Below, one piece after another: positions 15,301 to 31,782 of a DNA stretch of 56,422 bases; the stretch's first letter is position 1, and the number at the start of each line of letters is the position of its first letter. Source of the DNA: Promethearchaeota archaeon (GTDB taxonomy: Archaea; Asgardarchaeota; Hermodarchaeia; Hermodarchaeales; Hermodarchaeaceae); contig JBHLPR010000006.1 in the NCBI GenBank assembly GCA_048939245.1, positions 12,504 through 68,925 on the forward strand, given 5' to 3'. The translations under genes and the position numbers were made by a program. Under the pieces are notes generated by a model. The model saw only the letters and a list, made by a program, of their open reading frames with translations, did not search any database and had not been told where the DNA came from.

Positions 15301-18073
15301 TTGGAGGATCGTAGTCGATTGTGGTGCCTGTTTCCCGAATAGATACGATGACATCTACTGTACGATTCCCATAATAGGGTGCATTATGGCTAGAAATGCT
15401 ATACCACGAAAAGTTAACAGTAAAGGTATGTTGTCCAACACCGAGGGAAAGGGTGTCGATACTTATATCCCATACTCCTGGAGAACCACTGTAACTGATA
15501 CTTGCATCCGGGGCTACCCATTGAGTTGCCCCTAACCAGACAGACAGGTGAAGTCGGCTTGTACTATTATCAGGTGGTGAACCTCCATCTAAATCAGAAA
15601 GTGTGATGCTGAAGTCAGCGGAAATGCCACTTGGAACAGAACTTGGCGTAGTGGAGGTTAAGAGAGTATTTCGTCCTCTAACAATGATAGTAAAATCAAG
15701 AGTTTGTGATGCATAGTAATCCGATGGATCCGTGACACTCACAGTTAATGTATAAGTTCCTGGTATCCGCCCATCAGCATCAGAATCAGCCTGAATGTTA
15801 TACCACCCAGCTGAGCCACCTGCAGTAATTGAGGTTCCTGACCACCCTGGGGTCGAAAACCAGCCTGCTGCACCAGAAATCCCTACTTCTGCATTATCCT
15901 CGAAGAAGACTTGTAGTGTGAAGGTTTCTTGGTAATAAGCGGTATAACCTGGTGTCGGGGATGAGAGTGTAGTATCACTACGTACTTCTAACCAAATAGT
16001 TGTTTGAGCGGAATCATAAATTGGATCATTGGCGGTCACTACAAAGGCGTGGTCACCAGGGGAAATATAATCGTCTGGGACTTTACCTTGATATAAACTA
16101 CCAGATTGACGGAAAATGATTACAGGATAACCACTCACCAGTCCTGTAATTGTAGTTTGTGAGGTATTAGTTATAAACGGGCTGCCAGTGGTCTCAATAT
16201 CGTTGTATGAGACTCGAGGATATACGAATCCTCCTTCAGCATAATCTACGCTAATTGGGGTTGTTTCAGGTGAAAGACTTGAATCGTGTTCAATATTGAA
16301 GGTAGCATGATAGAATCCAGCATGGGATCCGGTTGGTCCATTATCATAAGAAATGCAGAGGTCATAGGTTCCTGCAGGAAAGAGGTCTCCGTCAGTGAAG
16401 GTATACGTTAGGATTTTCGTGGTACTTGAAATCGTTTCTATGACATCATCAATCTCCTGGTGGTTCTCATCATAGATGGTGAGATTGACATTTCCCGAGG
16501 TTACGCTATCAAAGTTTACAGTAACTGATAGTTGGTTTGGAGTTCGTGGGCTGATCCGGTATATGCTTTGCAATCCAGATACTGACGATATCTGGTTTGT
16601 TGAGGTAAAAGCGAAATTCCACCAACCAAAGGCGTCAATCAGGGAAGCCGGAAGACGCCAATAGATGCTATCGCTTGCTAACAGGACATCATCCGTCTTA
16701 TTGACCAAGTTAGGATCAAAGACACTGCTAAGTGTCCAAATGTCCCCAGCAAGTTTGGCTATTGTGAAATTATAATTCTCATAATATATAGGATAGAAGT
16801 CCGCAAAAAACCAAGATGTCCAGTAGACCTGTTCTCCATGTGTAACAGAAAATGCGGAACCTTCAGGACCCGTTTGTGCTTCTGTTTGACCACTTCGTTG
16901 AATTTTCAAAGTAATGGTGTAATTGAAATCCACGTTTCGACTTAATGCAGCTGCAGTGGACCAGATTGCGGCGATATTGTGGTCAGCAGCATAAGGTCCC
17001 CACGATCCTGATAGACTAATCGTTCCTAGACCATAATTGGTGTCAGTCCAGGAACTGGTACTATTCAAACGCAGTTGTATGCCATTACTAATTGGACTCG
17101 GTTTTCCTCTCACCACGAGTTTGACATTATCGAATTCCATATAGAAGGCGTTGTTAATCCTCCAATCGAAGTCCACCGTCATTCCAATTGTAACATTGAT
17201 TGTGTCAGATGTCCAGTCATCGAGTTCATCGACTGATAGAGAAAATTCGATTGGATGGAATCCCCACCCACCTCGATAGGCATTAAGGGCGTAACGATGG
17301 CAGACAAAAACACGTTCAGCACCACCAACTTCTGCGTAAACAGCCATTTCGTCATCGTCGTCTCTTCCGTGGATACCATCATCATAGAATTGAACATCAA
17401 AGGATAGTGTAGCACTTGTGGCGTCTATTCGGTTGAGGTCGATAACTTGTGTCCAACCGACATATTCAATGTAGGTTGCATTAGATACCCAATCATAATA
17501 TGGGTTCGTGCAGTTCGCTAAAACAGCCACTCCATCGCCAGTTTCTCCCCACGATGCTCCATAGTACCAATCAATACCCGCCAGACCATAGCCAGACATT
17601 CCGCGTTTACTTTCAACCCAATAGGTTGGTGAAGTTGTTCCACTTTCAAAATTCCCGTTTCGAGTATTACCTTCAATATGTGAAATGTTATCAAACAGGT
17701 TGAACACATTCGCAGTCAGTTCGTATCCCGTCCAACCTTGTGGAAGCTGAATTTGTCCCAAACGTGTTTCACCAAAATCAAGATCCGAAACAAAGAGCGT
17801 ACTAGTAGTTCCGGATGAATATTCTTGCGTTGTGAGAACTTGTCCTAATCCTTCATACAGATATTCAGTCCCATCCCAACTTGGACCTTCAGGTGGTGGT
17901 GTTAACGGAGATGAGGGTAAATTTGTATTTGGATTATCGTTTCCGCTAGCCTTGATATTGGGAGCTGTTCCAATTATCGGAGTAATAAGGCTGAGCGTTG
18001 AAAATAGAAAGAGCGTGAGAAATGTCAAACAGACTAGAGTTCGACGATTCATACATATCGACCTCGAGGACAC
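9305..18073 (-). CDS. Giant single-pass surface protein A (2922 aa): signal peptide, jelly-roll-like tip, Ig-like stalk, TM helix, conserved cytoplasmic tail. Start may be ATG at ~18052.
   Basis: Uninterrupted 8.8-kb ORF. Hydrophobic N-terminus; NGNFESG...EFDNVKL; ~100-aa repeats rich in Thr/Ser/Val/Tyr; TM segment AVYGGAGAAIVLIVLLMSWILW; many N-x-S/T sequons. Confidence 0.9.
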   Translation of the reverse strand: MSSRSICMNRRTLVCLTFLTLFLFSTLSLITPIIGTAPNIKASGNDNPNTNLPSSPLTPPPEGPSWDGTEYLYEGLGQVLTTQEYSSGTTSTLFVSDLDFGETRLGQIQLPQGWTGYELTANVFNLFDNISHIEGNTRNGNFESGTTSPTYWVESKRGMSGYGLAGIDWYYGASWGETGDGVAVLANCTNPYYDWVSNATYIEYVGWTQVIDLNRIDATSATLSFDVQFYDDGIHGRDDDDEMAVYAEVGGAERVFVCHRYALNAYRGGWGFHPIEFSLSVDELDDWTSDTINVTIGMTVDFDWRINNAFYMEFDNVKLVVRGKPSPISNGIQLRLNSTSSWTDTNYGLGTISLSGSWGPYAADHNIAAIWSTAAALSRNVDFNYTITLKIQRSGQTEAQTGPEGSAFSVTHGEQVYWTSWFFADFYPIYYENYNFTIAKLAGDIWTLSSVFDPNLVNKTDDVLLASDSIYWRLPASLIDAFGWWNFAFTSTNQISSVSGLQSIYRISPRTPNQLSVTVNFDSVTSGNVNLTIYDENHQEIDDVIETISSTTKILTYTFTDGDLFPAGTYDLCISYDNGPTGSHAGFYHATFNIEHDSSLSPETTPISVDYAEGGFVYPRVSYNDIETTGSPFITNTSQTTITGLVSGYPVIIFRQSGSLYQGKVPDDYISPGDHAFVVTANDPIYDSAQTTIWLEVRSDTTLSSPTPGYTAYYQETFTLQVFFEDNAEVGISGAAGWFSTPGWSGTSITAGGSAGWYNIQADSDADGRIPGTYTLTVSVTDPSDYYASQTLDFTIIVRGRNTLLTSTTPSSVPSGISADFSITLSDLDGGSPPDNSTSRLHLSVWLGATQWVAPDASISYSGSPGVWDISIDTLSLGVGQHTFTVNFSWYSISSHNAPYYGNRTVDVIVSIRETGTTIDYDPPSAEPWGNDMVITVRYVIDDPPLSGGITGISKVDVSCELGGVPYAGFGWTSLGGGAYEITIYSSVISQVQVYWLDITINDPTDSYQEASRILTFSIRGHQTQTIVDQPDPTPYGQQTSVTITWRDLDTATDLTDTQLSQLTLEFINSTGLPNELSLSFTLDTSAWNPGSYEIIVTTVPNSNQYLGSSGTLRITILIHQTAVTVLPPEATPVGYTTDITIQWSDLTAGGQIAYTEVENITITGAISDVVFGPLSSWTFTLDTSGLTIGTYSITVTVYAKTTPTQIYEHSTGSLNNGLVIRAHRVYVLVTGPPPVPEDGQIFISISWTDLDTGLSIGTSILDHVEVTYISGPPSHPSLPYTNTTSLSFYIDATGWDTGTFQLNCTVYPLITEPYDTGWGQVNIIIRVHSITADIDPIPRVPFGYDVPITFRVNDSDLLPSMGLPENHIVSIIITGGPSTLTLNSANWATWVNNGTAGDGIYVIILDVSSWALGTYVLTFNVETSVEYGNGFVTTQLTTRPLATSFTYQSPPVVPWGEDGKLIVRFLVDDTDPITTNPITNPISGASISIDTLTLGVDYGFVYWQNGKYNITFYSSHLTFVDEYLFDITINGGAQYDIGQLDDVPLKVRALFTWLHPTDVPVTPFGNDVIIEIEYIVLDGESSQYGDPIHTGSESIIVTGLDGFNPTSVTWEWVSAFSVYRVTIDASEVTNIQAYKIMISISGSGAGYEPDTIPELTFNVRTVFTALAVAPVDAQAYLDNFTIQITYTVNDPDSSLNGWGIDGQASIIELVEYPGLFDVIPFGNGIYNIVINSTNIGAPGSYLANIYTDWTQSPPPYAVQTRQVTLFITNRPTTIQNTIGGEFGYLEEIRVNFTYSDQLRTEWILNTSYGGGLLLISVYNTTPAIPVLIDNAAWYVVTIAGVDAFQLRIDADYFDRVGSFDFKVEVTWQPGTAPYFVAREFEFRAYVYGQRTDIIMQQSAGATPYDTNIIIEFEFITEQGDPINQTDYPDIDISLLCDELHGFGLQGTDWNYTFEGNGLYRIWVDSTRLLGIGSYTFFVNVTYPEGLSPFLESQYNEPVARTVRNITTLLAFKDPGSLYSGDDLNITVRYWNLDNDSAVFNNPPIDYIITGGTTLSNRSLGGGWWEFIVATSGLPAGTEFDIWIYAHQNFYTFQNISIPIYIFKVPLEIDLLTLGVITRYFGETPFPIVIINLTIGAGSDVNDPVTDATVIGTWDHGTLVFANALNGTYWIEISSLYDKGAYFIEIIASKAGYFAEDSRIISYTITAGPSQLDTYLCGPEPGVDEGTSFTLYANQPYFIGVWFRTLSGDNITGAIVTYSSAFTEIGSDVLPEISPGIYGKAFDSSTYGKLIYSMEVVADTATRNVQSQRLQFQMDVRFTPAKMEPSGGTYFISVEYFEDFTITIYLNDTENNLPILNQNITATWSPLSGGSASLYNWTGGYYNFTFPATLAAGFTYELYLDFNGPGSFDCPRTIMTIQIVPRQTNPVDRTGIVSVRDEWNNTINILQVPVGDWLFIYLNYTDAEGIPIPDGEGLVIVGDVSVPGAFHFDINRGLYVAMLNASLFGRGTHSLRVTISKTNYESKAYTTNFEVISIPTELTVVSIDGNPPPITRSANFFIGSIISIRLYLNDTWHNEPIDGATLSLPQTLDASGFEIIALGDGFYEIQGVWSQFSLGPTSMALTVTAEKTQPLTHESASLTDWVMTFEPHPTVLFAVYGGAGAAIVLIVLLMSWILWARVLSIPWEVRRMRKLAKTVEKDETYKLGRKDLKHFHERGMILESKVDSAMTPIGVGVTPAMIPKVEVVEEVTATEEDIMGELDKIPGLGPEEKAVLADEMRKIPRKDRIWFLDDLRRQMGQRRMDFLTQRERPPKPEVEPTTEPEAPKVTPIEPEEPPLEDVKPKEPPPSKALTEDRTAPTVLPPDIQPTPAIPTKVIAEIRRELSKIPGLSQEEKDALVDHLQYLSKEERLATYRSLKMSANEEK

Positions 18074-18285: not shown

Positions 18286-21200
18286 CTACTCTTCGGTCGT
18301 TTGCCGTAAGGATCGGTAAGTGGCTTCCCGTTCTTCTTTGGTCAAATGTTTAAGGTGGTCAACCAAAGACACCTTGTCCTCTTTGGTCAGCCCAGGAATC
18401 TTGTCCAGTTCGCGGCGAATCTCTTCCACTACTTCAGGTCGTTCGGAGGGTATTGGCTGCAAATCCGGCGGCAGCACAGTGGGCGCCGTCCGGTCTTCGG
18501 TAAACACCTTCGAGTCTGGGGGCTCAACCGGCTCCACGTCCTCTAAGGGCGGAAGGTCTGGTTTAGGCGGCTTCGGTGCTTTTTTCGGTGGTACCTCCTT
18601 TCGTGGAGTGAGCTTCTTCGGTGGCGGCACTTTCTCCGGTGGGGGCAACTTCGGTGGTGGTGCTTCTTTCGGTGGTGCCGCAGCGGGCTCCCGTTTGGTG
18701 AGGAAGTCCATCCGCTTTTCACCCATCTGCCGTTTCAAGTCATCCAGGAACCACACCTGGTCCTTCATGGGAATCTTCCGCATCTCCGCTGCTAGGACCG
18801 CTTTTTCTTCAGGTCCTAGTCCAGGAATCTTGTCCAGCTCCGAGATAATATCTTCTTGAGTTGCGGTGACTTCCTCAGTTATCGTGACAACCGGCACCAT
18901 CGCAGGCGTCATGGTCACCCCAATGGTCGACATCGCTGAATCAACCTTGCTCTCCAGAACTGCATCTCGTACATGGAACCGTTTCCTATCCTTCCGTCCA
19001 AGCGAATAGGTTTGATCCTTCTCAATGGACTTAGCAAATTTCCGAAGCCTGCGCACTTCCCAGGGAATCGATAATACGCGAGCCCAGAGGGTCCAGAGAA
19101 TCAAGACAAAGGTGAGGAAAATGGCTGCCCCAATTCCACTGATGATAAGCATGTTGGTTAACTCAGTGAATTGAAGTGAGAAGAATTGTGCTAATTCTGC
19201 ATCGTCATAGTCAGTTTTTGTTACTGTAAAAGTAATTATTCCTTGGGCGGGCCACGAGCCAGAGACTTCGATTTCATAATAGCCAGGATTATTCTCATCC
19301 GGACCCAAATACCTTACAACAGAATTTTCGATGACGCCGTCGAGTTGAAAGTCTGCTCCGCTAATTGCGCATTGATGATATTGATCCCAATATACTACAG
19401 AGAGTATTATCGGTTCACCAACGTAATAGATGTCATTCAAAGGCAACTGGTTAGGATCTGCCCAACGCAAAGTTGTCGGTGTCTGAATGACATTCAATTG
19501 TAACGTGAATGACCGGCTCACGAAATACGATTCAATATCATAAAAGTTCACCGTCAGGGCACTCTGGTAGTATGCGTCAAGATTCACTTCTACAAACCAC
19601 AATCCAGAGCTGTAATTTAGATCATATACACTAGCCGCACTAAACCGGGCGATAACGAAATCTGAAGGTGTGAGTACCATATCATTCTTGTCAAGAAATT
19701 GAAAAACTAGGAATAGAGTGTCATATCTCGGAATCTCCCACAATGCATCATCGGGATTCAAGGAGACATTTTTGAACTCGCCATCGATTATTCTCCATGT
19801 CCAACCATCAATGAATTGAAGGGTTGTGTTACGTGAATTTAGTTTAAATGTTAGAAGGTGTTCGATTCGAGCGTATTTTTGTTGAATTTCATGGATTATT
19901 TTGAAGGCATAAGAACCGGGACGATCGTCAGCTGTGAAGTTCACGGTATACCAACCACGACCATGTGTGGCATTGTAAGTTAACGTGTATTCATGGAGTC
20001 CCCATGTGCAATTCATTGTAGCTCCTAATATTCCTGAACCGTTCAAACTGTCCTGCAAGAAGATATCAAAAGTTACTATATCGCCATAATCTGTTTCAAT
20101 AGTGTTAGTGGTTGTATTTACGAAATCCGAATCAAATGTTATAATTACAAGAGGTTTGTGAATGAGATTGATAATAATCAACTGATTGCCTTGTTCATAA
20201 TTTGCTGAAATTGCTGTAACAAGAATTTGATAAGGCCGAACCTCCCAATCTGCCGTTTCAAGCGAAACGATATAATAAGGGTCAACCCAACTGAAGTTAG
20301 CAATTCTTGTGCCACCTTCAATTGCATAGACATCTGCACCAGGAATGGGAACACCACTTGAAGTAAAGCTGATGTTGAGTTGGATATTTGATTCTACAGT
20401 TTTTGTAATCTCAGCATAACTTCCGGGTGGAACATTCATCTCTGTAGCTACTTGATTGATGGTCAAAGTGTATACAAGGATTGGCTGAGTGTAGTTGAGT
20501 CCCCATTCGACTCTAAGAATCAATTGCCAGGTTCCTGCACCTGCATCAATCGAATGGAGTGTTGTATTGTAATGCCCGTCGCCGATTTGGTTTAGCAATC
20601 CTAAAGATCCTTCCCAATTGAATGTGATATTTGCCCATCGGATTGGCTCTCCACCAGGAAGAGCACTTTCCAAATAAACAATAATCTCTATGTCATCGAG
20701 ATAATTGCATTCCCACACCAAACCTACAGGTTGTATTCTGTTCAAGTTCAAGGGGTGTGATTTGACTTGGACAGATATCGCTCGGCTTGCTTCAATGTAG
20801 TTTGGTCTATTTGCTGTTAAAGTGAAGGTGAATTGACCGGCAGGTGCTGATGAGGTATTGATAAGTAGGATCATGCTTCCTAGTTTGCCAGTACTGTTAG
20901 TATATTCCAAGTTCGGATTCAGATCCCAGATGACACCGGTTACATTTTCATCGTTGTAGGTGTCTACATACCAGACTGTGATATTGAGTAATTCACCATA
21001 GTAGAGATCTTCATTTTGCTCCCATTCTAAGAAAGTAATGATTTCCTGCACTTGTCCCGCCACGAAAAGTGTCGTGGATTCAAAGAAATCCTCGTTACCG
21101 GGTTCAAGCTCGGGAGGCCATGTGAAATTGATGGCGAAAACATATGACCCAAACCCAGGAAGCTTTGAGCCGTTAATAAGAATTCGGTAAATACCACCGG

Positions 21201-24200
21201 CTCCTTTATCATCAAGTGTTACTTGGTCAATCCACCAAAACGTATCATCCCATCCAGGAATGTCATCTTCAACAGGTAAGACGCTGATTCCAACATTTCC
21301 TGTGTTATTATTAATTGGTTGGCCTTCGGCAGTTTCGTAATGTAATGTTAGATTCAGGCTTTCTCCAAAGGGCACTCCTTGAACTGCGTCCGCGAATCCT
21401 ACAGTTGGAGTTCCTGCTACGCGGACTGTGAATGTGGCTGAAGCATTGGCATAAAAGGGAGCATTACCGACCCATGTCACGTTGATATTAAAATCGTAGT
21501 AGACATCGACTTTGCCCATATCGCTAGCCAGAATGCGTATCGTAAAGACATAGTTGGGGTTCGAATAATCCGCGGCAACCCAATATTGGGTATCGAGCAA
21601 TGTACCATCTGAAGCATTAATCACATAGATGCGAACATCACTACCCCACGTGGTATTATCAATTTTCAATCCCGAAAGAATGTCAAAATAGTTTACATGG
21701 ATGGTAATGTTGTTCGCATAGCCTGTATCTGGTGGAAGTGTGATGCGGGCTTGTGTAGCTCTTTCTGTAGTCGTTAAGCTTGCAAGTACCCATTGAGGTT
21801 TATAGGTGGGTATGGGATCGAGCCAATCAATGGTGATGTTAACCTGCCAAATGCCTGGGCCCGGGGTGAAGCTGGAGTTGATATAGATATAGTAGATGCC
21901 ATTGCCAGCATCAAATACACTGTATTCTCCGGGATTTAATGTCCACGGGCCAATAGCGGCTACGGTGATGTCGGTTGCCCCTGCAATCCCTAACCCATTT
22001 TGTGAGCTGAGGTCGTCGCGAACCCGATAAATGACGGTCATGGTGAAGTTAGTGTTGTAGGCTGCTGCTTCGACGGGAGGTTTCTCAACTTCCGTGTAGA
22101 CAGTTCGAACATTAAAGCCCATACTGGGGATGTTCGCGAGTCGATATTGCGGAGGCAGAGAGGCATTAATGGCGATATGGTAAGCACGAATGGTTGGAAG
22201 GACGGATTGATCGATTTCGATGATATAGGCGCCTCCGCCTATAGAGTGAATCTGATAGCTGCTACCGAGGGTGAAATCTAGTCCCTTAACGGTGATGGTT
22301 GCGCCAAGGATTGGGCCTTCGTGGTAGATGCTTTGGACATCGAAGACAATGTAGTTGACGGTGATGTTGACATCATCGCCGAAGGGTTGGCTTGGTACTT
22401 GCGAATAGGCGAGGGTGGTAAAGAGTTGCCGGACATCTAGTGGCACATTATCCAATGCTGCTCCATAATAGTTAGCTCCGGCTGCAATTTGAATATCAAG
22501 ATAGTAGATTTGCACTTGATCGATGAACGCAGCATTGATTGTGATGATATATGTTCCTGGGGTTCCACTGGGTGCAGAATTGAATTGAATGCCTTCGGTC
22601 CACCCCGATATGGTGATTGTTGCTCCAGTGATTGCTTCGGTATCATGGGTGCTTCCTTCGTCTTGCACATGATAATGGACAAGAAGGGTTCCGTCATTTC
22701 CCCATGGAATCGGGGTCGCTGGCGTGAAGAGAAAAGAAGTTGCCAATGCTCGAATAGTGGCTGAAGTCTGAATTGTGCCATCATTATACTCTGCTGTTGT
22801 TTTCGAAGTAATAATAATCGCATGTGATCCAAGCGACCATGAAGCGGCTGGAAGAAGAACACTATAAACACCAGTCGTGATGTTGGTTACGAAAAGTGTC
22901 CAGTTGGTCCAATCGTAGATCCACCTGCTCCCTCCTGCTAAGATTGTAATACGCTCTATGCTTCCATCAAGCGGGCTGTTCAGGTCACTATCATTAACAC
23001 GCATGGTGAACCGAGTGTTATTATTCCAGGGGATTTGGGGGATGGGGTCAATATCAATTCGAATATTGTGTCGGCGAATTTGAATGGTGACTAATCCCCA
23101 TTGAATATCGTATCGTTCCGTATCAAGGGGATAGACCGTGACATTGAGCGTGTGGAGGAGCGTTGGCCATCCCTGCGCGGATAAAAGGAAGCTCAATGAA
23201 TAGTTTACAGCGGTTGGGCTTGGATAGCCAAGGCTGCCGGTGGTGGTCACATAGTCAAGGTAACTTTCGGGTATATCTCCACCCGTGTCGACATCTTCCC
23301 AGAATACTGTGATGTTTACATCTCCACCTTCTGGGATGGTGCTGGGTGGGTTGATGACGACATTCACGCGGTGACGTCGAATCGTGATTTGGGTTGTCGC
23401 CCAGGCATCACCATATTTTCTGCCTACTGACTCTGCGTACACTGTGACATTGATGGGATGGGTACCAAAGTTCCAAGGTGGCATCAAGGTCGTGTCTAGA
23501 TTGAAGGCAAGTTGGGTAAACCATTCCAGTTGTGAACCGGAGGTTCGGTTATACACGTAGGTCCTGTAAAGGTTGGAGGGGTCGATAGGGCTATTTCCTA
23601 AGTCGAGATCACGCCATTCCACAACGATGGGGGTGACGGTGCCCCAAGGTGTGGGGCTGGGTGGTTGTACGATGACGTTGGTGTAGTGGATGCGGATGGT
23701 AATGGGAATCTGTGCGGAGGCATGTTGGTAGAGGGCACTGGACGAATAGAAGTTAACTGTGACGTAGTAGGTGTTGGGGGATTGCCAGACGGTATCATCG
23801 GTGGTGTCAAGGTCAAAGGTGAAGGTATAAAAAGTCTGGTCGATGGCATCGGGGCAGTCGGTAATGGTAATATTATCTAAGTTCGAGGAGACATAGACAC
23901 CATCATCGAGGTCCCACCATTTGACAATGAGGTGGGTGGAGAGTCCCCAGGCAGTGGCGCTGGGTGGGGTAATATCAAGTCGCATGGCATGGGAGCGAAT
24001 GGTCACGGTAACGGGTCCACTAGAATTGTAATAGTTTGTATTGCCAAAAACCCAAACAGTGAGGGCATAACTACCAACGCTCCAGGTGTTTGTGGGAAGC
24101 GTGAAGATCAGGGCCGTATCCATATACGGGAGTCCAGGACCGGAACCGGCCACAGTTACGTTGTTGAGATTGATTTCAGCAATGAGGGCATCGATGTCTA

Positions 24201-27200
24201 CATCGCGCCAGTATACGACAAGTTGGGTGTCATCGCCCCAAGGTTCAGCGGCAGGGGGGTCAACGGTGACACTCACATAGTGTGCCCGAATCGTGATGGT
24301 GACCTGATAGGTGCCGATTTCATATTCTTGTTCGGGTATCACCAGTGGGTTGACAGTGACAGTAACAGTGTAGGAGCCTACATTCCATGTGAGGGTGTCA
24401 AGAGTAAAACTTAGTCCACTGAAGTCTTGATCACCGGTTGGACCACCCGTGATGGTCACGTTCTTAAGATTACTAGAATCGATGGTCATGCCAGTATCTA
24501 AGTCCTTCCACGTAATCGTCATCGGCGTATTAGCACCCCAAGGGGTGGGTGGTGGCGTTGGTACCACTATTTCGACACGATGGACGCGAATTCCAACGGT
24601 GACGCTGCCAACGGCATCACTGTAATATCGGGTGTTCGTAGCGTATATCGTGACTGTGAGAGTTTCGCCCATGCTAATTGGCCAAGTGCTAGTAATGAGA
24701 GTAGGTGTCAGAGTCAGAAATGATTGGTCACCACCTATTGGACAATTTGAGATGATGACTTGGGATAGGTTGTTGAGGGGGACTGCTGCTCCCGTGTCGA
24801 GATCGGTCCAAAGTATTACGAGATTTGTATCGAAGCCCCACGGGGTAGGGGCAGGAGTTTCAACGACGACGGCGGTGTAGTGGATTCGGATGGATACGGT
24901 GAGGTTTGAGCTGCTTTGATAATACCACCCTTGCCCGAGGTCTGGCTGTATGGTGACGGTGAGAATATGGTTGCCAACAACCCAGCCATTGGTATCAATG
25001 GTGAAGCTTAAGGCGAAGAAAGTCTGGTCGCCACCAAATGGACAATTCGTAACCACCACTTGGGAGAGATTACCTGTTGGGACATTTGTGCTTCCTAGAT
25101 CTAAGTCGACCCAACTAAGCACAATAGGTGTATCGAAGCCAAATGGGGTCTGACCAGGAGGAGAGACGATGGTTTGGGTTTGGTGGGGGCTAATGGTAAC
25201 AATTACTGGACCATTTCCTGGATTGTAGGAGGCATTGCCATACACCCAGACTACGAGGTTATGTCCGCCAACTGTCCAGCCGGAGGTGCTTAAGGTGAAT
25301 GCAAGTTGAGAGACCGAATAGGGAAGGTTTGGTTCGGTTCCAGTGACTGTCACGTTGTCAAGGGCACTAAGATCAATTAATGTGTCCGTATCTACATCCC
25401 GCCAAATGACGGTTAATTGTGTATTTTTGCCCCAAGGTGTGGGGGTGGGAGGGCTTACAGTGACGCTGACATAATGGGCTCGAATTGTAATAGTCAACTG
25501 GTAGTTGGCTGTTTCATATTCTGTAAAGGGTGTGGTGATTGGATAGACGGTAATATTGAGAGTATATTGACCGATACTCCAAGTGTTCGTAATTAGAGTG
25601 AAGGTGAGGCTGGTGAAGGTTTGGTCGCCACCCACGGGACAATCTGATACCACAATGGTATCGAGGTTTGCTCCGTCAATCGTAGTCCCAGTGTCTAGGT
25701 CCTTCCAGGTGACACTCATGTCAATGATATTGGACCCCCAGGCTGTCGGGGCAGGGGTGGGGACGACGACTTCGACGCGATGGATTCGAATGACGACGGT
25801 GACGCTTCCCCAGGCGTCGCTATAGGTGCGAGGTCCAGTTGTGGCGTATACGGTGACATTCAGAGTATAACCACTGCTAATATCCCAGCCTGCGGTATCG
25901 AGGGTGAAGGTGAGGCTGGTGAAGGTTTGGTCGATGAAATCGGGGCAGTCCGATACGACAACTTGGTATAGTTGTGCACCGGGGACATCGATACTCGAGT
26001 CGAGATCTGTCCAAATGACAGTGATTTGGGTATTAAAGCCCCAAGGTCTGGGATTTGGAGGTTGTACTATGACTCCTGTGTAGTGGATGCGAATTATTAC
26101 TGTTGTATTGGAGCTACTGCCAAGATATTGACTTGAGGATGAAAACGTTGTGACTGTAATTACGTATTCACCAATATTCCATGTGTCGGTATCGAGGGTG
26201 AAGGTGAGGCTCGTAAAAATCTGATTACCACCCACAGGACAATTGGACACTACAATTTGCAGAAGATTACCGCCAGGTACGTTGGCACTTCCCTGATCAA
26301 GGTCCAACCAAGTTACCGCCATTGGTGCATCAAACCCGAAGGGCGTTTGCTGAGGTGGCGTGACTACAGTTTGGGTTTGATGACCACGAATGGTCACCGT
26401 GACTTGTCCACTATTTAGTACGTAATCGGTGGTTCCATAGACCCAGACCGTTAACAGATGACTACCCACACTCCAGCCATTAGTGGTCAAGGTGAAGCTG
26501 AGAGAACTAAAACTCTGATCACCACCCACGGGACAGTTGGTGACCGTGACATTATCGAGATTGACTTCGGCAATTATGGAGTCAGTGTCTACATCACGCC
26601 AAGTAATTGCCAAGTCTGTATCATAACCCCATGGGGTTTGAGCTGGAGGATCAACAGTGACACTCACGTAATGGGCCCGGATAGTCACTGTTACCAAATA
26701 GTTTGTTATTCTATAGAGCTGTGGGCTCATTTCGGGAAATACGGTCACATTTAACGTGTAACTCCCTTGGCTCCAAGTGCTAGTGATGAGGGTAAAAGTA
26801 AGGCTTGTAAAAGTTTGGTCGCCACCGACAGGACAATCGCTAATGGTAATGTTATCCAAGTTAACACCAGCGATAGTGGTACCGGTGTCTAGATCTTTCC
26901 AGGTGACTGTCATATCCTCAATGTCGAAGCCCCAGGGAGTGGGAGGTGGTGTGGGGACGACGACTTCGACACGGTGAATTCGAATAACAACGGTCACTGA
27001 CCCCCAGGCGTCGCTATAAGCGCGAGGACCCGTTGTCGCATACACGGTGACATTAAGCGTGTAGCCAGTGCTGATAGTCCAACCCGTGGTATCAAGCGTG
27101 AAGGTGAGGCTGGTGAAGGTTTGGTCGATGAAATCGGGGCAGTCCGATACCACAACTTCATAAAGATCCCCGCCTGGAACTGCTGATCCAAGGTCAAGGT

Positions 27201-30200
27201 CACTCCAAAGCACTGTGATCTGAGTATTAAAGCCCCAGGGGGTTGGATCTGGAGGTTGCACCGTCACACCGGTATAATGGATTCGGATAACTACTGTGGT
27301 GTTGGAGCTGCTTCCCAAGTAGGAGCTCGATGACGAAAAAGTCGTAACAGTTAGAGTGTACGTCCCTACATTCCATGCATCCGTATCGAGGGTGAAGGTA
27401 AAGCTTGTGAAAGTCTGATCGCCGCCAACCGGACAATTGGAGACCACAATTTGTAAGAGGTTGGCACCGGGGACGGGGTTACTTCCTTGATCGAGGTCCA
27501 ACCAACTCACGATCACTGCTGTGTCAAGTCCAAAGGGTGTTTGTTGGGGTGGTGTGACCACGGTTTGGGTTTGATGGCCGCGAATGGTCACGGTGACAGG
27601 CCCACTTCCCGCTCTATAATCGGCATTTCCGTAGACATAGACTGTCAGCAGGTGACTACCCACGCTCCAACCGTTAGTAGTTAGGCTAAAGCTGAGGGTG
27701 GCAAAGGTTTGGTCGCCGCCCACGGGGCAGTTGGTGACTGTTACGTTATCGAGATTTATTTCGGCAATTATGGAGTCGGTATCCACATCACGCCAGGTGA
27801 TGGTCAGATCGGTATCGTAGCCCCAGGGAGTTTGGGCAGGAGGATCGACGGTGACGCTTACATAATGGGCCCGAATAGTAATCGTTACTTGGTAACTGGT
27901 TATCGCATATTCTTGTTGTGGGATCATGTTCGGGTATACAGTTACATTCAGTGTATAGCTACCTTGACTCCACGTGTTAGTGATAAGGGTAAAGATGAGA
28001 CTGGAAAAAACTTGGTCGCCACCGACAGGACAATCGCTAATGGTAATGTTATCCAAGTTAACACCAGCGATAGTGGTACCGGTGTCTAGATCTTTCCAGG
28101 TGACTGTCATATCCTCAATGTCGAAGCCCCAGGGAGTGGGAGGTGGTGTGGGGACGACGACTTCGACGCGGTGGATACGAATGACTACAATGACACTTCC
28201 TGAAGCATCACTATAGGATTGTGGACCAGTTTTGGCGTATACTGTGACATTGAGGAGATAACCAGCGCTGATATCCCATCCTGAGGTGTCGAGATTGAAA
28301 ATGAGGGTGGTAAAGGTTTGGTCGCCGCCTACGGGGCAATCAGAAACCACTATTTGAGATAATTCGCTTCCTGGGACGCTGCCACCAATATCAAGATCTG
28401 TCCAAAGAACGATGATTGTCGTGTAAAATCCCCAAGGAGTTGGATCTGGGGGTTGCACCGTTACGCCAGTATAATGAATTCGGATGACCACGTTGACTGT
28501 GGTGCTATCTCCTTCGTACCATCCAGGAGGATTTGCAGGATTTACGGTTACCGTGAGTACATAGGTACCAACCGACCACCCATTCGTTTGGAGCCAGAAT
28601 GAAAGACTACCAAAGGTTTGGTCACCACCCACGGGACAGTTGGACACCACGACGCTGGATAGGTTTCCTGGGACATCAGTTGCTGTTTCGAGATCAGTCC
28701 ATACTATTGAAATTAGAGTATTTTCACCCAGTGCAGTTTGTGCTGGGGGATCGACTATCGCTTGAGTCTGGTGGGCACGAATATGGAAGAACAGTCTTCG
28801 ATTTGCCCCCGCGTAGATATCTGTAGCATCATTTACTACAAGATAAAGTTCGTAAACATCAACTTGGGTAATGTCAATTGTATAAAGGGTTAAGCGATAT
28901 TGACCTGATCCAAGGTGTGTCCAACCAAAACTGCTTACGGCTGAACTATTTAAGGTACAAGAGACTTCGGATACCCCGATTGTAGTAATACCATCTCCGT
29001 GATAACCACTTGCTGGGTCATCCACGTCATAGTAGAAGATGATTTCTAGGTCATTTCCCCAAGGTTCAGGAGCCGGCGGATCATAGCTTAATATGGTTTG
29101 AAGTTCACGAATAGTGAAAGTCAGGGTTCCACTTGTACTGCCATATTTTGTATCCGTGGGATCCGCAGTGATTCGAAGTGAGTAGCTTTTGATGAGAGAG
29201 ATTTTACCACTTATTGCAAGGATGGTGACATTATAGGAACCGTCTCCATAGTTTGTGAATAGATAATCCACATCTTGTGTGAGAATGGTTCCATCGAGTC
29301 GAACCACAAAACTCGCACTAGCAATCGCATCGCCATCGTATTGACTCTCAAGATCGCTCACATTGAGGGTAAAGAGAATTTCCACATCCTCGTCATATGG
29401 AACAGCCCCCGGTGGATCGTAATTGATTGATGTGGAGATTTCTCGGACTACAATCGTTAGCACGAGTGTGCGGGTCGTGTAATAGTTTAGGCTAGCTTGA
29501 ATGCTAAGGGAATAGGTGCCAGGAGTAGGTCGAGACCCCGCATTTAAAGTGATATTGTACCATCCTGCGGTACCGTTGCTTGTTCCAGTGGGTCCCCAAT
29601 TGGTGGTTACGGTGGCTCCAGCAATTCCCTGACCACCTGTGTAGTTGTAAAAGACTTGGATGGTAAAGGATTCGTCATAGGGCACGGTTAGTCCTGGGGA
29701 CTGGGGGGAGGATAAGCTGGCGTCGCTTCGGACTTGGAGATTAATATTACAGGTGGCTTTTTCGTAGAAGGGTGCTGTGGCTTCTATGGAAAGAACGTAA
29801 TCGCCTGGGTCCAGCAGGTCATTGGCGATTTGGGCTTGGTAGCGACTCCCAACTTGGACAAAAATAATCGCGTTTCCATCAACAGTTCCATTGACACGGA
29901 CATTGCCGGTGGTGTTTCCAATAAATAAATTAGATCGGTCGGCATCCGTAAATGATACGCGTGGATAATAGTAACCTGAAGTGGAATGGGTCACCGTCAT
30001 CGGCGTGTCTTCAGGAGTTAGGTCGGTATCATGGGTCAGGTTAAAATACGTGGAATAGAATCCGGTGAAAATAATATCCGCATTGACTCCATTATCATAA
30101 CTTATACAGAGGGAATAGCGGCCTGCAGGGAAGTTCGCTCCGCTGGTGAACTCAACATAAAATGAGGTTGTTAGGGAGCCGGTCCATGAGTTGGTTTGGT

Positions 30201-31782
30201 TCACAAGAGCTGATCCGCTGGAATGATAGAGACTAAGATTGGCTTCACCATAGTTTTCGGTGAATGTGACATCAATGTCTAGCGCATAGGGGGTCCGGGG
30301 AGAAATTACATAGTTGTCCACCAGACCTTCAATTAATGAGTAGCGGTTTGTGCTACTGAAGGTAAATTTCCACCAACCAAAGACTTCGTTTATCGCAGAG
30401 CTATTAAGGGTGATTTGGGTTGAGGAATTTTCAACCCAGGAAAGCCGTTGAGTCCCTAATGGGTCAATCACGGAGGTTAGCGTCCAGGTTGTCGGTTTCG
30501 AAATCGTGAGGTTATACGCTTCAAACCCATAGGGTTGATAGGCATAATACCAAGTCTCAAAACTCGTTGCAGAAGCATTTTCGCACACAAATAAACTGCC
30601 AATCTGGGTGCTTTGAATGGTCTGTTTAGTGAGCCCTTCTTTACGAATGAATAACGTCAAATCACAGGCGAGGTCAATATTATCTGCGGTTGTTGTGAAA
30701 TTGTTAAGGATAGCAATCCAGTTGGTGCTGGGATTCGCTTTGGGCAAATCTCCACCTGTCAAGTTAAGATTTCCTGCTCCATACCCATCATTTACAACGG
30801 CTGTTCCATTAATTTGTAAACCAACTTGAGTAGGTTGGGGTTGAGCCCGAACTTGCAGGACGACATCATCAAAATCTACTGAATATCTACAAGTTGACCA
30901 GGATCCTGAAGTATCTGTCCAAGAAATTCCTAATGTGATGTTTAGATTCCCTGGTAAACCTAATTTTGCGATATCAGATGCTCCGAGGTCAATAGTTAGG
31001 TCATACCAACTACCTGCACTGCCTATTGATGCAAAAGTAAGACGCCGTTCAACTACCTGGTCACCTTCGAGTTGAACTAGGACTACCATTCTTCCCCATG
31101 CTCCCCCATCGATATGGGCATTCAATCTACATTTGAAATCTAATCTAACAAGACTTGGAGCAGCTCGTGGAATATTCACAGTCTGATAATATGCACCAAA
31201 ATAGCTAGAACTCCAAGACCATTCTGGAGGATATTCCCATTCTACAAGGGTGCGAATTCCATCTGAAGGGCCATAGCCATAATTGCCATATGAACCGTTA
31301 ATATTTGCGTAGTTAATCGGATCGCCATTCTCAATATAATTCCAATTTGTTGGTGAACCAGGCTCTCCGTAGGTTCCTGACTCAAAGTCGCCGTTTGATT
31401 GCCATGACCGATTTTCAAACAGATTATAAATGGATGCAGAGGTCTTGTAAGCCGTCCATTGGGTGGGTAGCTGGGCACTCGCGGCCACTGATTCGCCAAT
31501 GTCGAGATCAGTAATTGTCTGCGCTTCATAGGTGCCCTGGGTCATTTCCCATGTCTGGGAAGTGTTTCCTGTTCCCAAGTACTTGTATTTGCCCTCATCA
31601 TAGGTTGGCCCTGATGGTAGAGGCGGTGAATTCACCCCTTGGCCATTCACGTGTCTCAGATTCTGGCTGTTCTCCTTAAATGGGTCATTTAAGCCTACTC
31701 CGTTCCAAGGTGTTGAAACAAGTAATGGAGAAACAAAGACTAAGGAAAAAAGAAAGAGTACAAGCAAAGAATAGTGTTTCAT
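18286..31782 (-). CDS. Giant single-pass surface protein B (4498 aa), paralog of protein A with an expanded stalk
   Basis: Uninterrupted 13.5-kb ORF with the same domain order as A. NGDFESG...DFDDVVL; TM segment IISGIGAAIFLTFVLILWTLW; tail highly similar to that of A. Confidence 0.92.
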   Translation of the reverse strand: MKHYSLLVLFLFSLVFVSPLLVSTPWNGVGLNDPFKENSQNLRHVNGQGVNSPPLPSGPTYDEGKYKYLGTGNTSQTWEMTQGTYEAQTITDLDIGESVAASAQLPTQWTAYKTSASIYNLFENRSWQSNGDFESGTYGEPGSPTNWNYIENGDPINYANINGSYGNYGYGPSDGIRTLVEWEYPPEWSWSSSYFGAYYQTVNIPRAAPSLVRLDFKCRLNAHIDGGAWGRMVVLVQLEGDQVVERRLTFASIGSAGSWYDLTIDLGASDIAKLGLPGNLNITLGISWTDTSGSWSTCRYSVDFDDVVLQVRAQPQPTQVGLQINGTAVVNDGYGAGNLNLTGGDLPKANPSTNWIAILNNFTTTADNIDLACDLTLFIRKEGLTKQTIQSTQIGSLFVCENASATSFETWYYAYQPYGFEAYNLTISKPTTWTLTSVIDPLGTQRLSWVENSSTQITLNSSAINEVFGWWKFTFSSTNRYSLIEGLVDNYVISPRTPYALDIDVTFTENYGEANLSLYHSSGSALVNQTNSWTGSLTTSFYVEFTSGANFPAGRYSLCISYDNGVNADIIFTGFYSTYFNLTHDTDLTPEDTPMTVTHSTSGYYYPRVSFTDADRSNLFIGNTTGNVRVNGTVDGNAIIFVQVGSRYQAQIANDLLDPGDYVLSIEATAPFYEKATCNINLQVRSDASLSSPQSPGLTVPYDESFTIQVFYNYTGGQGIAGATVTTNWGPTGTSNGTAGWYNITLNAGSRPTPGTYSLSIQASLNYYTTRTLVLTIVVREISTSINYDPPGAVPYDEDVEILFTLNVSDLESQYDGDAIASASFVVRLDGTILTQDVDYLFTNYGDGSYNVTILAISGKISLIKSYSLRITADPTDTKYGSTSGTLTFTIRELQTILSYDPPAPEPWGNDLEIIFYYDVDDPASGYHGDGITTIGVSEVSCTLNSSAVSSFGWTHLGSGQYRLTLYTIDITQVDVYELYLVVNDATDIYAGANRRLFFHIRAHQTQAIVDPPAQTALGENTLISIVWTDLETATDVPGNLSSVVVSNCPVGGDQTFGSLSFWLQTNGWSVGTYVLTVTVNPANPPGWYEGDSTTVNVVIRIHYTGVTVQPPDPTPWGFYTTIIVLWTDLDIGGSVPGSELSQIVVSDCPVGGDQTFTTLIFNLDTSGWDISAGYLLNVTVYAKTGPQSYSDASGSVIVVIRIHRVEVVVPTPPPTPWGFDIEDMTVTWKDLDTGTTIAGVNLDNITISDCPVGGDQVFSSLIFTLITNTWSQGSYTLNVTVYPNMIPQQEYAITSYQVTITIRAHYVSVTVDPPAQTPWGYDTDLTITWRDVDTDSIIAEINLDNVTVTNCPVGGDQTFATLSFSLTTNGWSVGSHLLTVYVYGNADYRAGSGPVTVTIRGHQTQTVVTPPQQTPFGLDTAVIVSWLDLDQGSNPVPGANLLQIVVSNCPVGGDQTFTSFTFTLDTDAWNVGTYTLTVTTFSSSSSYLGSSSNTTVVIRIHYTGVTVQPPDPTPWGFNTQITVLWSDLDLGSAVPGGDLYEVVVSDCPDFIDQTFTSLTFTLDTTGWTISTGYTLNVTVYATTGPRAYSDAWGSVTVVIRIHRVEVVVPTPPPTPWGFDIEDMTVTWKDLDTGTTIAGVNLDNITISDCPVGGDQTFTSLTFTLITSTWSQGSYTLNVTVFPEMSPQLYRITNYLVTVTIRAHYVSVTVDPPAQTPWGYDTDLAITWRDVDTDSIIAEVNLDNVTVTNCPVGGDQSFSSLSFTLTTNGWSVGSHLLTVWVYGTTDYVLNSGQVTVTIRGHQTQTVVTPPQQTPFGFDAPMAVTWLDLDQGSANVPGGNLLQIVVSNCPVGGNQIFTSLTFTLDTDTWNIGEYVITVTTFSSSSQYLGSSSNTTVIIRIHYTGVIVQPPNPRPWGFNTQITVIWTDLDSSIDVPGAQLYQVVVSDCPDFIDQTFTSLTFTLDTAGWDISSGYTLNVTVYATTGPRTYSDAWGSVTVVIRIHRVEVVVPTPAPTAWGSNIIDMSVTWKDLDTGTTIDGANLDTIVVSDCPVGGDQTFTSLTFTLITNTWSIGQYTLNITVYPITTPFTEYETANYQLTITIRAHYVSVTVSPPTPTPWGKNTQLTVIWRDVDTDTLIDLSALDNVTVTGTEPNLPYSVSQLAFTLSTSGWTVGGHNLVVWVYGNASYNPGNGPVIVTISPHQTQTIVSPPGQTPFGFDTPIVLSWVDLDLGSTNVPTGNLSQVVVTNCPFGGDQTFFALSFTIDTNGWVVGNHILTVTIQPDLGQGWYYQSSSNLTVSIRIHYTAVVVETPAPTPWGFDTNLVILWTDLDTGAAVPLNNLSQVIISNCPIGGDQSFLTLTPTLITSTWPISMGETLTVTIYATNTRYYSDAVGSVTVGIRVHRVEIVVPTPPPTPWGANTPMTITWKDLDTGMTIDSSNLKNVTITGGPTGDQDFSGLSFTLDTLTWNVGSYTVTVTVNPLVIPEQEYEIGTYQVTITIRAHYVSVTVDPPAAEPWGDDTQLVVYWRDVDIDALIAEINLNNVTVAGSGPGLPYMDTALIFTLPTNTWSVGSYALTVWVFGNTNYYNSSGPVTVTIRSHAMRLDITPPSATAWGLSTHLIVKWWDLDDGVYVSSNLDNITITDCPDAIDQTFYTFTFDLDTTDDTVWQSPNTYYVTVNFYSSSALYQHASAQIPITIRIHYTNVIVQPPSPTPWGTVTPIVVEWRDLDLGNSPIDPSNLYRTYVYNRTSGSQLEWFTQLAFNLDTTLMPPWNFGTHPINVTVYAESVGRKYGDAWATTQITIRRHRVNVVINPPSTIPEGGDVNITVFWEDVDTGGDIPESYLDYVTTTGSLGYPSPTAVNYSLSFLLSAQGWPTLLHTLNVTVYPLDTERYDIQWGLVTIQIRRHNIRIDIDPIPQIPWNNNTRFTMRVNDSDLNSPLDGSIERITILAGGSRWIYDWTNWTLFVTNITTGVYSVLLPAASWSLGSHAIIITSKTTAEYNDGTIQTSATIRALATSFLFTPATPIPWGNDGTLLVHYHVQDEGSTHDTEAITGATITISGWTEGIQFNSAPSGTPGTYIITINAAFIDQVQIYYLDIQIAAGANYYGAALDNVPLDVRQLFTTLAYSQVPSQPFGDDVNITVNYIVFDVQSIYHEGPILGATITVKGLDFTLGSSYQIHSIGGGAYIIEIDQSVLPTIRAYHIAINASLPPQYRLANIPSMGFNVRTVYTEVEKPPVEAAAYNTNFTMTVIYRVRDDLSSQNGLGIAGATDITVAAIGPWTLNPGEYSVFDAGNGIYYIYINSSFTPGPGIWQVNITIDWLDPIPTYKPQWVLASLTTTERATQARITLPPDTGYANNITIHVNYFDILSGLKIDNTTWGSDVRIYVINASDGTLLDTQYWVAADYSNPNYVFTIRILASDMGKVDVYYDFNINVTWVGNAPFYANASATFTVRVAGTPTVGFADAVQGVPFGESLNLTLHYETAEGQPINNNTGNVGISVLPVEDDIPGWDDTFWWIDQVTLDDKGAGGIYRILINGSKLPGFGSYVFAINFTWPPELEPGNEDFFESTTLFVAGQVQEIITFLEWEQNEDLYYGELLNITVWYVDTYNDENVTGVIWDLNPNLEYTNSTGKLGSMILLINTSSAPAGQFTFTLTANRPNYIEASRAISVQVKSHPLNLNRIQPVGLVWECNYLDDIEIIVYLESALPGGEPIRWANITFNWEGSLGLLNQIGDGHYNTTLHSIDAGAGTWQLILRVEWGLNYTQPILVYTLTINQVATEMNVPPGSYAEITKTVESNIQLNISFTSSGVPIPGADVYAIEGGTRIANFSWVDPYYIVSLETADWEVRPYQILVTAISANYEQGNQLIIINLIHKPLVIITFDSDFVNTTTNTIETDYGDIVTFDIFLQDSLNGSGILGATMNCTWGLHEYTLTYNATHGRGWYTVNFTADDRPGSYAFKIIHEIQQKYARIEHLLTFKLNSRNTTLQFIDGWTWRIIDGEFKNVSLNPDDALWEIPRYDTLFLVFQFLDKNDMVLTPSDFVIARFSAASVYDLNYSSGLWFVEVNLDAYYQSALTVNFYDIESYFVSRSFTLQLNVIQTPTTLRWADPNQLPLNDIYYVGEPIILSVVYWDQYHQCAISGADFQLDGVIENSVVRYLGPDENNPGYYEIEVSGSWPAQGIITFTVTKTDYDDAELAQFFSLQFTELTNMLIISGIGAAIFLTFVLILWTLWARVLSIPWEVRRLRKFAKSIEKDQTYSLGRKDRKRFHVRDAVLESKVDSAMSTIGVTMTPAMVPVVTITEEVTATQEDIISELDKIPGLGPEEKAVLAAEMRKIPMKDQVWFLDDLKRQMGEKRMDFLTKREPAAAPPKEAPPPKLPPPEKVPPPKKLTPRKEVPPKKAPKPPKPDLPPLEDVEPVEPPDSKVFTEDRTAPTVLPPDLQPIPSERPEVVEEIRRELDKIPGLTKEDKVSLVDHLKHLTKEEREATYRSLRQTTEE
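24000..28780 (-). repeat. Intragenic tandem super-repeat: 4 copies of ~1195 bp, each made of 4 Ig-like domains
   Basis: Domain-start motifs cycle in the order HQTQ, HYTG, HRVE, HYVS. 26815-26970 is identical to 28012-28167 (156 bp, offset 1197). 25904-25956 is identical to 27098-27150 (53 bp, offset 1194). Confidence 0.92.

Follow-up and report, generated by a model that had tools for sequence, protein, structure and literature searches.

How does a cell-surface protein acquire a stalk whose domains recur in a strict cycle of four, and does the period itself serve a function? These questions are raised by a window of 56,422 nucleotides (the whole stretch of DNA analysed here) from a Promethearchaeota archaeon whose metagenome-assembled genome, designated G000, comprises 2.5 Mb and is 88% complete. 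Two adjoining giant genes on the minus strand of this window encode paralogous proteins of the same architecture, which we call A (9305-18073; 2922 amino acids) and B (18286-31782; a type-I membrane protein of 4498 amino acids). A preliminary description, made from the sequence alone, attributed the greater length of B to a titin-like super-repeat of four immunoglobulin-like (Ig-like) domains, and took this period to suggest a structural period or a ruler function. We find that the super-repeat is real, and that it probably arose by in-register recombination of whole blocks, with the period of four being a by-product of history.

Domain starts in B were placed by a motif scan combined with a profile built from the domains, and the four domain classes are named after their starting residues as Q (HQTQ), Y (HYTG), R (HRVE) and V (HYVS). 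Residues 1004-2597 of B (23992-28773, on the minus strand, as are all features of A and B described below) form four tandem, ordered Q-Y-R-V blocks of 398-399 amino acids each, which the preliminary description had located at 24000-28780, equivalent to residues 1001-2594. Block 1, Q1-Y1-R1-V1 (27577-28773), spans residues 1004-1402, with domains starting at residues 1004, 1103, 1204 and 1306. Block 2, Q2-Y2-R2-V2 (26383-27576), spans residues 1403-1800 (starts at 1403, 1502, 1603 and 1704) and is followed by block 3, Q3-Y3-R3-V3 (25186-26382), which spans residues 1801-2199 (starts at 1801, 1900, 2001 and 2103). Block 4, Q4-Y4-R4-V4 (23992-25185), is the most diverged of the four and spans residues 2200-2597 (starts at 2200, 2301, 2401 and 2501). 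The resulting cycle lengths of 399, 398, 399 and 398 amino acids bear out the earlier claim that the domain starts cycle strictly four times with a period of about 399 residues.

Comparisons among the domains confirm that this arrangement is a higher-order repeat, in which domains at the same position of the cycle are more alike than neighbours. Pairs of domains from one class have a mean identity of 0.65 and pairs from different classes one of 0.45, and the identity profile along B peaks at lags 4, 8 and 12. Neighbouring domains are 36-55% identical (mean 47%), and whole cycles compared with one another are 57-75% identical in amino acids and 60-72% in nucleotides. The domains also group by position in the cycle in a maximum-likelihood tree of 24 domains, as the preliminary description had anticipated: the position labels require four changes (the minimum being three) versus a mean of 13.9 for shuffled labels, and none of 200 shuffles gave a value as low. 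Tandem Repeats Finder reported no repeat here, because the 1.2-kb period lies above its 500-nucleotide limit and the copies are too diverged.

Comparison with A reveals what has been added to B. BLASTP alignments show A to be collinear with B over residues 1 to approximately 1000 of B, and again over residues 2374-4498. Between these regions, A carries only a single Q-Y-R triplet (14090-15010; residues 1022-1328), with no V domain and no extra block. The starts of its Q, Y and R domains (1022, 1120 and 1224) and of the following IDPIP-type domain (1329) are collinear with a diverged Q'-Y'-R' triplet of B (23071-23991; residues 2598-2904, with starts at 2598, 2699 and 2804) and with the IDPIP-type domain of B (22747-23070; residues 2905-3012). 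The latter groups with its counterpart in A with support of 100/99 and marks the point at which the common series resumes, continuing with a LATSF domain from residue 3013. The array of B thus rejoins the series it has in common with A, as had been described, although A has nothing equivalent to class V and the IDPIP domain is a type of its own. The four cycles sum to 1594 amino acids versus a length difference of 1576 between the two proteins, so that the cycles explain the difference as proposed; small insertions and deletions elsewhere make up the rest.

Has this stalk changed length in whole blocks among relatives as well? We searched 40 related genomes, retrieved the loci and labelled every domain by class-specific profiles. 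Among complete proteins, no extra block occurs in A or in the A-type relatives (at least five, of 2842-2968 amino acids), a protein of 3299 amino acids from genome G012 has one, B and the metagenome protein P0003 have four, and a protein from a sister genus (G018; open frame of 7129 amino acids) has ten. Three further arrays are cut by contig ends and hold at least two (G008), at least four (G015) and at least one (P0015) blocks. Block length across the arrays is 398-402 amino acids, and among complete and contig-cut arrays none departs from a multiple of four domains. The complete arrays, with 0, 1, 4, 4 and 10 blocks, support the proposal of stalk growth in four-domain units, and the related genomes yielded whole-block steps rather than arbitrary single-domain variation. 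Domain order is likewise maintained, with Q followed by Y, Y by R, and R either by V and then Q or by IDPIP wherever the calls are clear; calls were ambiguous for the diverged triplets at the ends and for the first cycles. A scan of metagenome contigs with the block alignment returned no relative. Of 1.84 billion cluster representatives, only 111 matched the block profile at an E-value of 0.001 or below, and no complete array with a block number other than those above came from this search.

P0003 derives from an independent Joint Genome Institute (JGI) metagenome. It comprises 4489 amino acids, is approximately 76-77% identical to B and has the layout (QYRV)x4 followed by Q'Y'R' and IDPIP. 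In a tree of blocks, each block of B pairs with the P0003 block at the same position (support of 100/100 for c3 and c4), and the blocks are thus orthologous one to one between the two species. Genera g1 and g2 each have a clade of blocks of their own (81/98 and 90/94), and therefore the arrays expanded independently in the two genera. Blocks 4-7 are the youngest in the G018 array. Block number differs between species and genera (1, 4 or 10) and is equal in the two closest proteins, B and P0003. Between blocks, the proportion of synonymous differences (pS) is 0.63-0.79, which is near saturation, and that of nonsynonymous differences (pN) is 0.06-0.29; the ratio of the corresponding rates (dN/dS) is 0.05-0.12 where dS could be estimated. 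Near-saturated synonymous sites combined with low pN indicate that the blocks are old and individually constrained.

The blocks also bear traces of exchange. A tract of 156 nucleotides in R2 (26815-26970) is identical to its counterpart in R1 (28012-28167) at a spacing of 1197 nucleotides, which constitutes a trace of gene conversion, and a tract of 53 nucleotides in Y3 (25904-25956) is identical to its counterpart in Y2 (27098-27150) at a spacing of 1194 nucleotides. The copies that hold these tracts are otherwise approximately 70% identical and the tracts lie in register, which shows that in-register recombination is ongoing. R1 and R2 are 0.88 identical and V1 and V2 0.87 identical in G000, compared with 0.73 and 0.71 in P0003, and this difference indicates lineage-specific conversion after the two species split. 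In addition, the similarity of successive blocks is mosaic, such that Y1R1V1 resembles Y2R2V2 and Q2Y2 resembles Q3Y3, from which it follows that crossover points fall inside the unit but always in register.

Exchange also extends to the paralogous gene type. G012 has one giant gene (locus L030; contig C37, 4504-14460) at the same locus where G000 has two, lying between a longin-like gene and the acyl-CoA synthetase and ODP genes. Both the head (54-83% identical to A and 21-49% to B) and the C-terminal half of its product are of the A type. By contrast, residues 1101-1600, with the domain series Y-R-V-Q-Y, are 60-72% identical to the blocks of B and only 38-45% identical to A. As judged from these identities, a B-type cassette was copied into an A-type gene, with a net gain of exactly four domains. 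A simple fusion of a B head to an A tail was considered for this gene and rejected, given that head and tail are both of the A type and the insert alone is of the B type.

In G008, the B ortholog is split by the assembly: contig C32 (the end of locus L031) stops inside block 2, and contig C64 (locus L033, 1-520) opens with the B-type cytoplasmic tail and continues with the A ortholog. When heads are compared, those of the two G008 paralogs are closest to one another, a result suggestive of homogenization within that genome. G014 (locus L034, contig C18) carries two tandem giants whose types occur in the order opposite to that in G000. The upstream giant has an A-like C-terminal half and no extra block, and the C-terminal half of the downstream giant is sister to the B clade.

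Other Asgard giants built from the same domain have super-repeats of their own. The period is five in P0005 (labelled Thorarchaeota; permutation p=0.0005), five in P0007 and four in P0006, and P0008 has none. A joint tree places the 16 Q, Y, R and V domains of B in one clade confined to that protein and those of P0006 in another (support of 83 and 99, respectively, in the Shimodaira-Hasegawa-like approximate likelihood ratio test). For P0005 and P0007, domains pair with those at equivalent positions of the same protein and never with members of the Q, Y, R and V classes. The super-repeats thus arose independently and with different periods. Copies within P0005 are up to 98% identical (domains 5, 10 and 15). 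The tails of P0005, P0006 and P0007 differ from the Hod-type tail and end in an L-P-R-[DE]-L-V-[DE]-E-L motif.

What is the structure of the unit that is gained and lost? An AlphaFold2 model of Q-Y-R-V-Q, computed from 19 aligned natural blocks, has a mean predicted local distance difference test score (pLDDT) of 93.7 and a predicted template modelling score (pTM) of 0.58. Its domains are seven-stranded beta-sandwiches that follow one another with no linker in between. When this five-domain model was searched with Foldseek and VIA-align, extended Ig-like rods ranked on top, including GhpA, the MpIBP ice adhesin, invasin and a LapA-like stalk, with root-mean-square deviations (rmsd) of 11-16 Å. 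The GhpA match has a Z score of 12.2 over 403 residues at 15.8 Å and 14% identity, and compact macroglobulin (MG) arrays superpose at approximately 34 Å only. The high pLDDT and these best matches support the Ig-like domains of the preliminary description, and the models suggest that the stalk is rod-shaped. No family in Pfam or NCBIfam truly matches the domains, tip or tail, and no single domain reaches a Pfam gathering threshold; Pfam scans of whole proteins and of single domains gave no I-set or fn3 match. The Ribophorin_II_2nd family (PF23861) was rejected since its whole-protein score of 36.6 bits is the sum of weak stretches of which none passes alone, the best single domain scoring 16.8 bits (E 0.008) relative to a cut-off of 23.4. 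Big_3_5 (PF16640) scored 13.4-13.7 bits, short of its cut-off of 35.5. At the level of sequence, the Q, Y, R and V domains (23992-28773) contain an invariant W-x-D-L-D motif and an I-R-x-H junction motif, and most keep exactly one cysteine in a C-P-V-G-G-D-Q loop, with V3, V4 and R4 lacking it.

We propose that the array began with a single duplication, in which an ancestral run of Q, Y, R and V domains that had already diverged, midway along the stalk, was copied as one block of about 1.2 kb. With a second block in place, unequal in-register homologous recombination and gene conversion could have operated between blocks and between the tandem paralogs. Whole blocks would then be added, removed or transplanted, and stalk length would change in four-domain steps of approximately 398-402 amino acids. 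Under this proposal, the period of four would simply record which segment was duplicated first, and selection would act on the fold of each domain and, probably, on the overall reach of the stalk, which is probably the functional variable. Given that an Ig-like domain adds a rise of about 4 nm, the tip of B would stand 16 domains further out than that of A, or roughly 60-70 nm if the stalk is straight. An extra reach of some tens of nanometres is therefore plausible.

Several observations weigh against this recombination history or against parts of it. Every block is under strong purifying selection, and the class motifs persist across two genera. Strict quantization and the kept class order are equally predicted by structural constraint, and the independently derived periods (two of four and two of five) fall within a narrow range that is perhaps not accidental. 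Complete arrays with at least one block number only four. As regards the proposed function, the model of the tip described below is of low confidence, with a pLDDT of 59 overall and 70-80 in its core.

Purifying selection, the invariant I-R-x-H junctions and the narrow range of four to five for independent periods lend some weight to junction co-adaptation, considered below, and to the ruler function raised in the preliminary description, whereby the four classes would constitute one geometric or binding unit, only whole units would be tolerated and stalk height would take discrete steps. Such a unit might be a full turn of a twisted rod, or a register of lateral packing with neighbouring stalks or with a partner. 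The Q-Y-R-V order kept across arrays of two genera (except in the ambiguous, diverged end domains), the tightly kept block length of 398-402 amino acids, the low dN/dS with retention of class-specific motifs, and the linker-less junctions with their invariant I-R-x-H motif, which suggest fixed interfaces, would all suit a ruler. However, quantized copy number is also expected from in-register homologous recombination, whose traces are present. Homologous Asgard stalks have periods of five, five or four or none at all, and their classes have a separate origin in each protein. A and its orthologs are functional with a Q-Y-R triplet that lacks V, copy numbers of 0, 1, 4 and 10 betray no preferred length, there is no known partner, and the pTM of 0.58, despite the high pLDDT, does not assert a fixed geometry between domains. 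A ruler or true structural period is accordingly not supported, and we regard it as improbable. A bolder version, in which the block is a genuine structural module of the Asgard surface coat set by a turn of the rod or a side-by-side packing register, is quite unlikely. If it were true, stalk heights would be quantized in steps of approximately 16-18 nm, and A, B and the six further genes that encode a tail of this type would display distinct glycan-binding tips at tiers of defined height above the membrane, coupled to a common cytoplasmic tail.

Whole blocks could also be favoured in the absence of any ruler if the Q-Y, Y-R, R-V and V-Q interfaces were co-adapted, such that non-native junctions are purged and only whole blocks survive. 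The linker-less junctions with conserved boundary residues are consistent with this possibility, and only class-consistent junctions occur, even in the G012 hybrid (A-type Q to B-type Y, and B-type Y to A-type R). Yet the junctions are not exclusive, because R precedes V within blocks but the unrelated IDPIP domain at the array end, and Q follows either V or an unrelated upstream domain. Because in-register recombination alone yields the same pattern, junction compatibility as the cause also seems improbable. A related idea, that blocks serve to separate near-identical domains and so prevent misfolding, was set aside: neighbours are already 36-55% identical, which is not below the 30-40% given in that context (Wright 2005 and Borgia 2011, cited in PMC9704523). 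Finally, the block number could be wrong through collapse or expansion in a short-read contig. A 156-nucleotide exact repeat at a spacing of 1197 nucleotides might confuse a de Bruijn assembler, and the G008 ortholog is indeed broken at a contig end inside the array, with its tail opening another contig. But 28-40% of nucleotides differ between blocks, no stop interrupts the 4498 codons, and four blocks recur in the independently assembled P0003, each with its ortholog in B. The block divergence and the P0003 array led us to reject an assembly artefact, which is highly unlikely. Recombination of whole blocks in register thus remains the reading that we favour.

Among known proteins, the closest analogue of the B array is the middle-Ig super-repeats of the titin I-band, and the A-band ruler is a poorer match. 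As summarized in PMC12241362, the 6-Ig and 10-Ig super-repeats of the I-band arose by independent duplication in different vertebrate lineages (human 3+3, zebrafish 3+1, elephant shark 6+1, whale shark 8+1). The family of B resembles this region of titin (connectin) in that one Ig-like fold is arranged in higher-order blocks, domains group by block position, and copy number varies by lineage (0, 1, 4 or 10). It differs in having no detectable sequence relation to I-set domains by Pfam I-set and fn3 matching, and in being prokaryotic, intron-less, extracellular and membrane-anchored with a period of four. The A-band, according to PMC12241362 and PMC2196875, has 7- and 11-domain patterns of two fold types, Ig and Fn3, matched to the thick-filament lattice. 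B shares with it an ordered pattern of fixed period and position-specific conservation; however, its array has a single fold type, a variable copy number, homologs with other periods and no known periodic partner.

The Periscope Proteins of bacteria offer a second comparison. Their repeats are highly identical and vary between closely related strains, and their length changes by whole units, for which homologous recombination has been proposed (PMC9704523). Like these and other fibrillar adhesins (SasG/Aap, Rib, Sgo0707, MpIBP and LapA-like proteins, of which MpIBP and a LapA-like stalk were among the structural matches of the five-domain model), B would work as a single-chain beta-sandwich stalk that projects an N-terminal module from a C-terminal anchor, and its family changes in length by whole units. 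Its blocks, however, are too divergent (57-75% in amino acids, 60-72% in nucleotides) to count as highly identical repeats; being old and individually constrained, they are unlike the fast-switching, almost identical units of Periscope Proteins, and block number is unchanged between two species whose proteins are approximately 76-77% identical. Furthermore, B is archaeal and is held by a transmembrane (TM) anchor with a conserved, signalling-type cytoplasmic tail of 264 amino acids, with no cell-wall attachment. The best structural match, the GhpA grappling hook of Aureispira (PDB 9flp and others), also has long Ig-like chains, but the likeness is only at the level of fold (rmsd approximately 16 Å), and GhpA is a bacterial, secreted and multimeric hook.

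The remainder of B can be described by a layout that it has in common with A: an N-terminal signal peptide, a head of approximately 1000 amino acids that includes a beta jelly-roll tip, a series of domains of about 100 amino acids each, one TM helix and a cytoplasmic tail. The stalk of B contains approximately 40 beta-sandwich domains. The low-confidence model of the tip (30811-31620; residues 55-324) gives best matches that are all carbohydrate-binding jelly rolls, namely the carbohydrate-binding modules CBM70, CBM4, CBM22, CBM16 and CBM11. On the basis of this model, we tentatively assign glycan binding to the tip. The tips of A (17072-17884) and B (30811-31620) are 28% identical and have a common N-G-x-F-E ... 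F-D-[DN]-V frame. N-X-S/T sequons number 84 in B and 44 in A. The TM helix lies at residues 4211-4234 of B and 2651-2676 of A, and in B the helix and conserved tail together occupy 18289-19152. B is best explained as a giant, sequon-rich Asgard surface protein with a single TM anchor and a tentative glycan-binding tip carried on a linker-less, Ig-like stalk.

Cultured Asgard archaea lack an ordered S-layer and instead have 'complex surface proteins' that protrude from a single membrane, for which a role in mediating the cell-cell contacts of interest for eukaryogenesis has been proposed (PMC9834061; bioRxiv 10.1101/2025.11.06.686947). The locus described here supplies a concrete gene family for Asgard surface structures, consisting of type-I giants with a common cytoplasmic tail, and reveals how their length evolves, in that whole four-domain cassettes increase or decrease in number and pass from one paralog to another. 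Block duplication would ordinarily produce such a super-repeat, and the mechanism is instructive rather than surprising.

The conserved tail of the A/B type, approximately 250 amino acids long, is not confined to these two proteins. Together with the TM helix (stretches 18289-19335 and 9305-10123), it is found in at least eight genes of G000, with 33-62% identity over approximately 160-330 amino acids. These tail-sharing genes, among them A and B and genes on contigs C7, C15 (four genes, clustered) and C71, make up a multigene family whose products are type-I surface proteins with one kind of intracellular tail. The genes that flank A and B are archaeal housekeeping genes, and comprise a thiolase/HMG-CoA synthase pair, an ADP-forming acyl-CoA synthetase and an ODP-flavoprotein. 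Upstream of the giants lies a gene (33911-36001, minus strand) that was labelled longin-like in the preliminary description and has no Pfam match. Its product measures 696-730 amino acids across orthologs, and the gene is kept in synteny in G000, G008, G011, G012, G015 and G018 (loci L028-L032 and L037).

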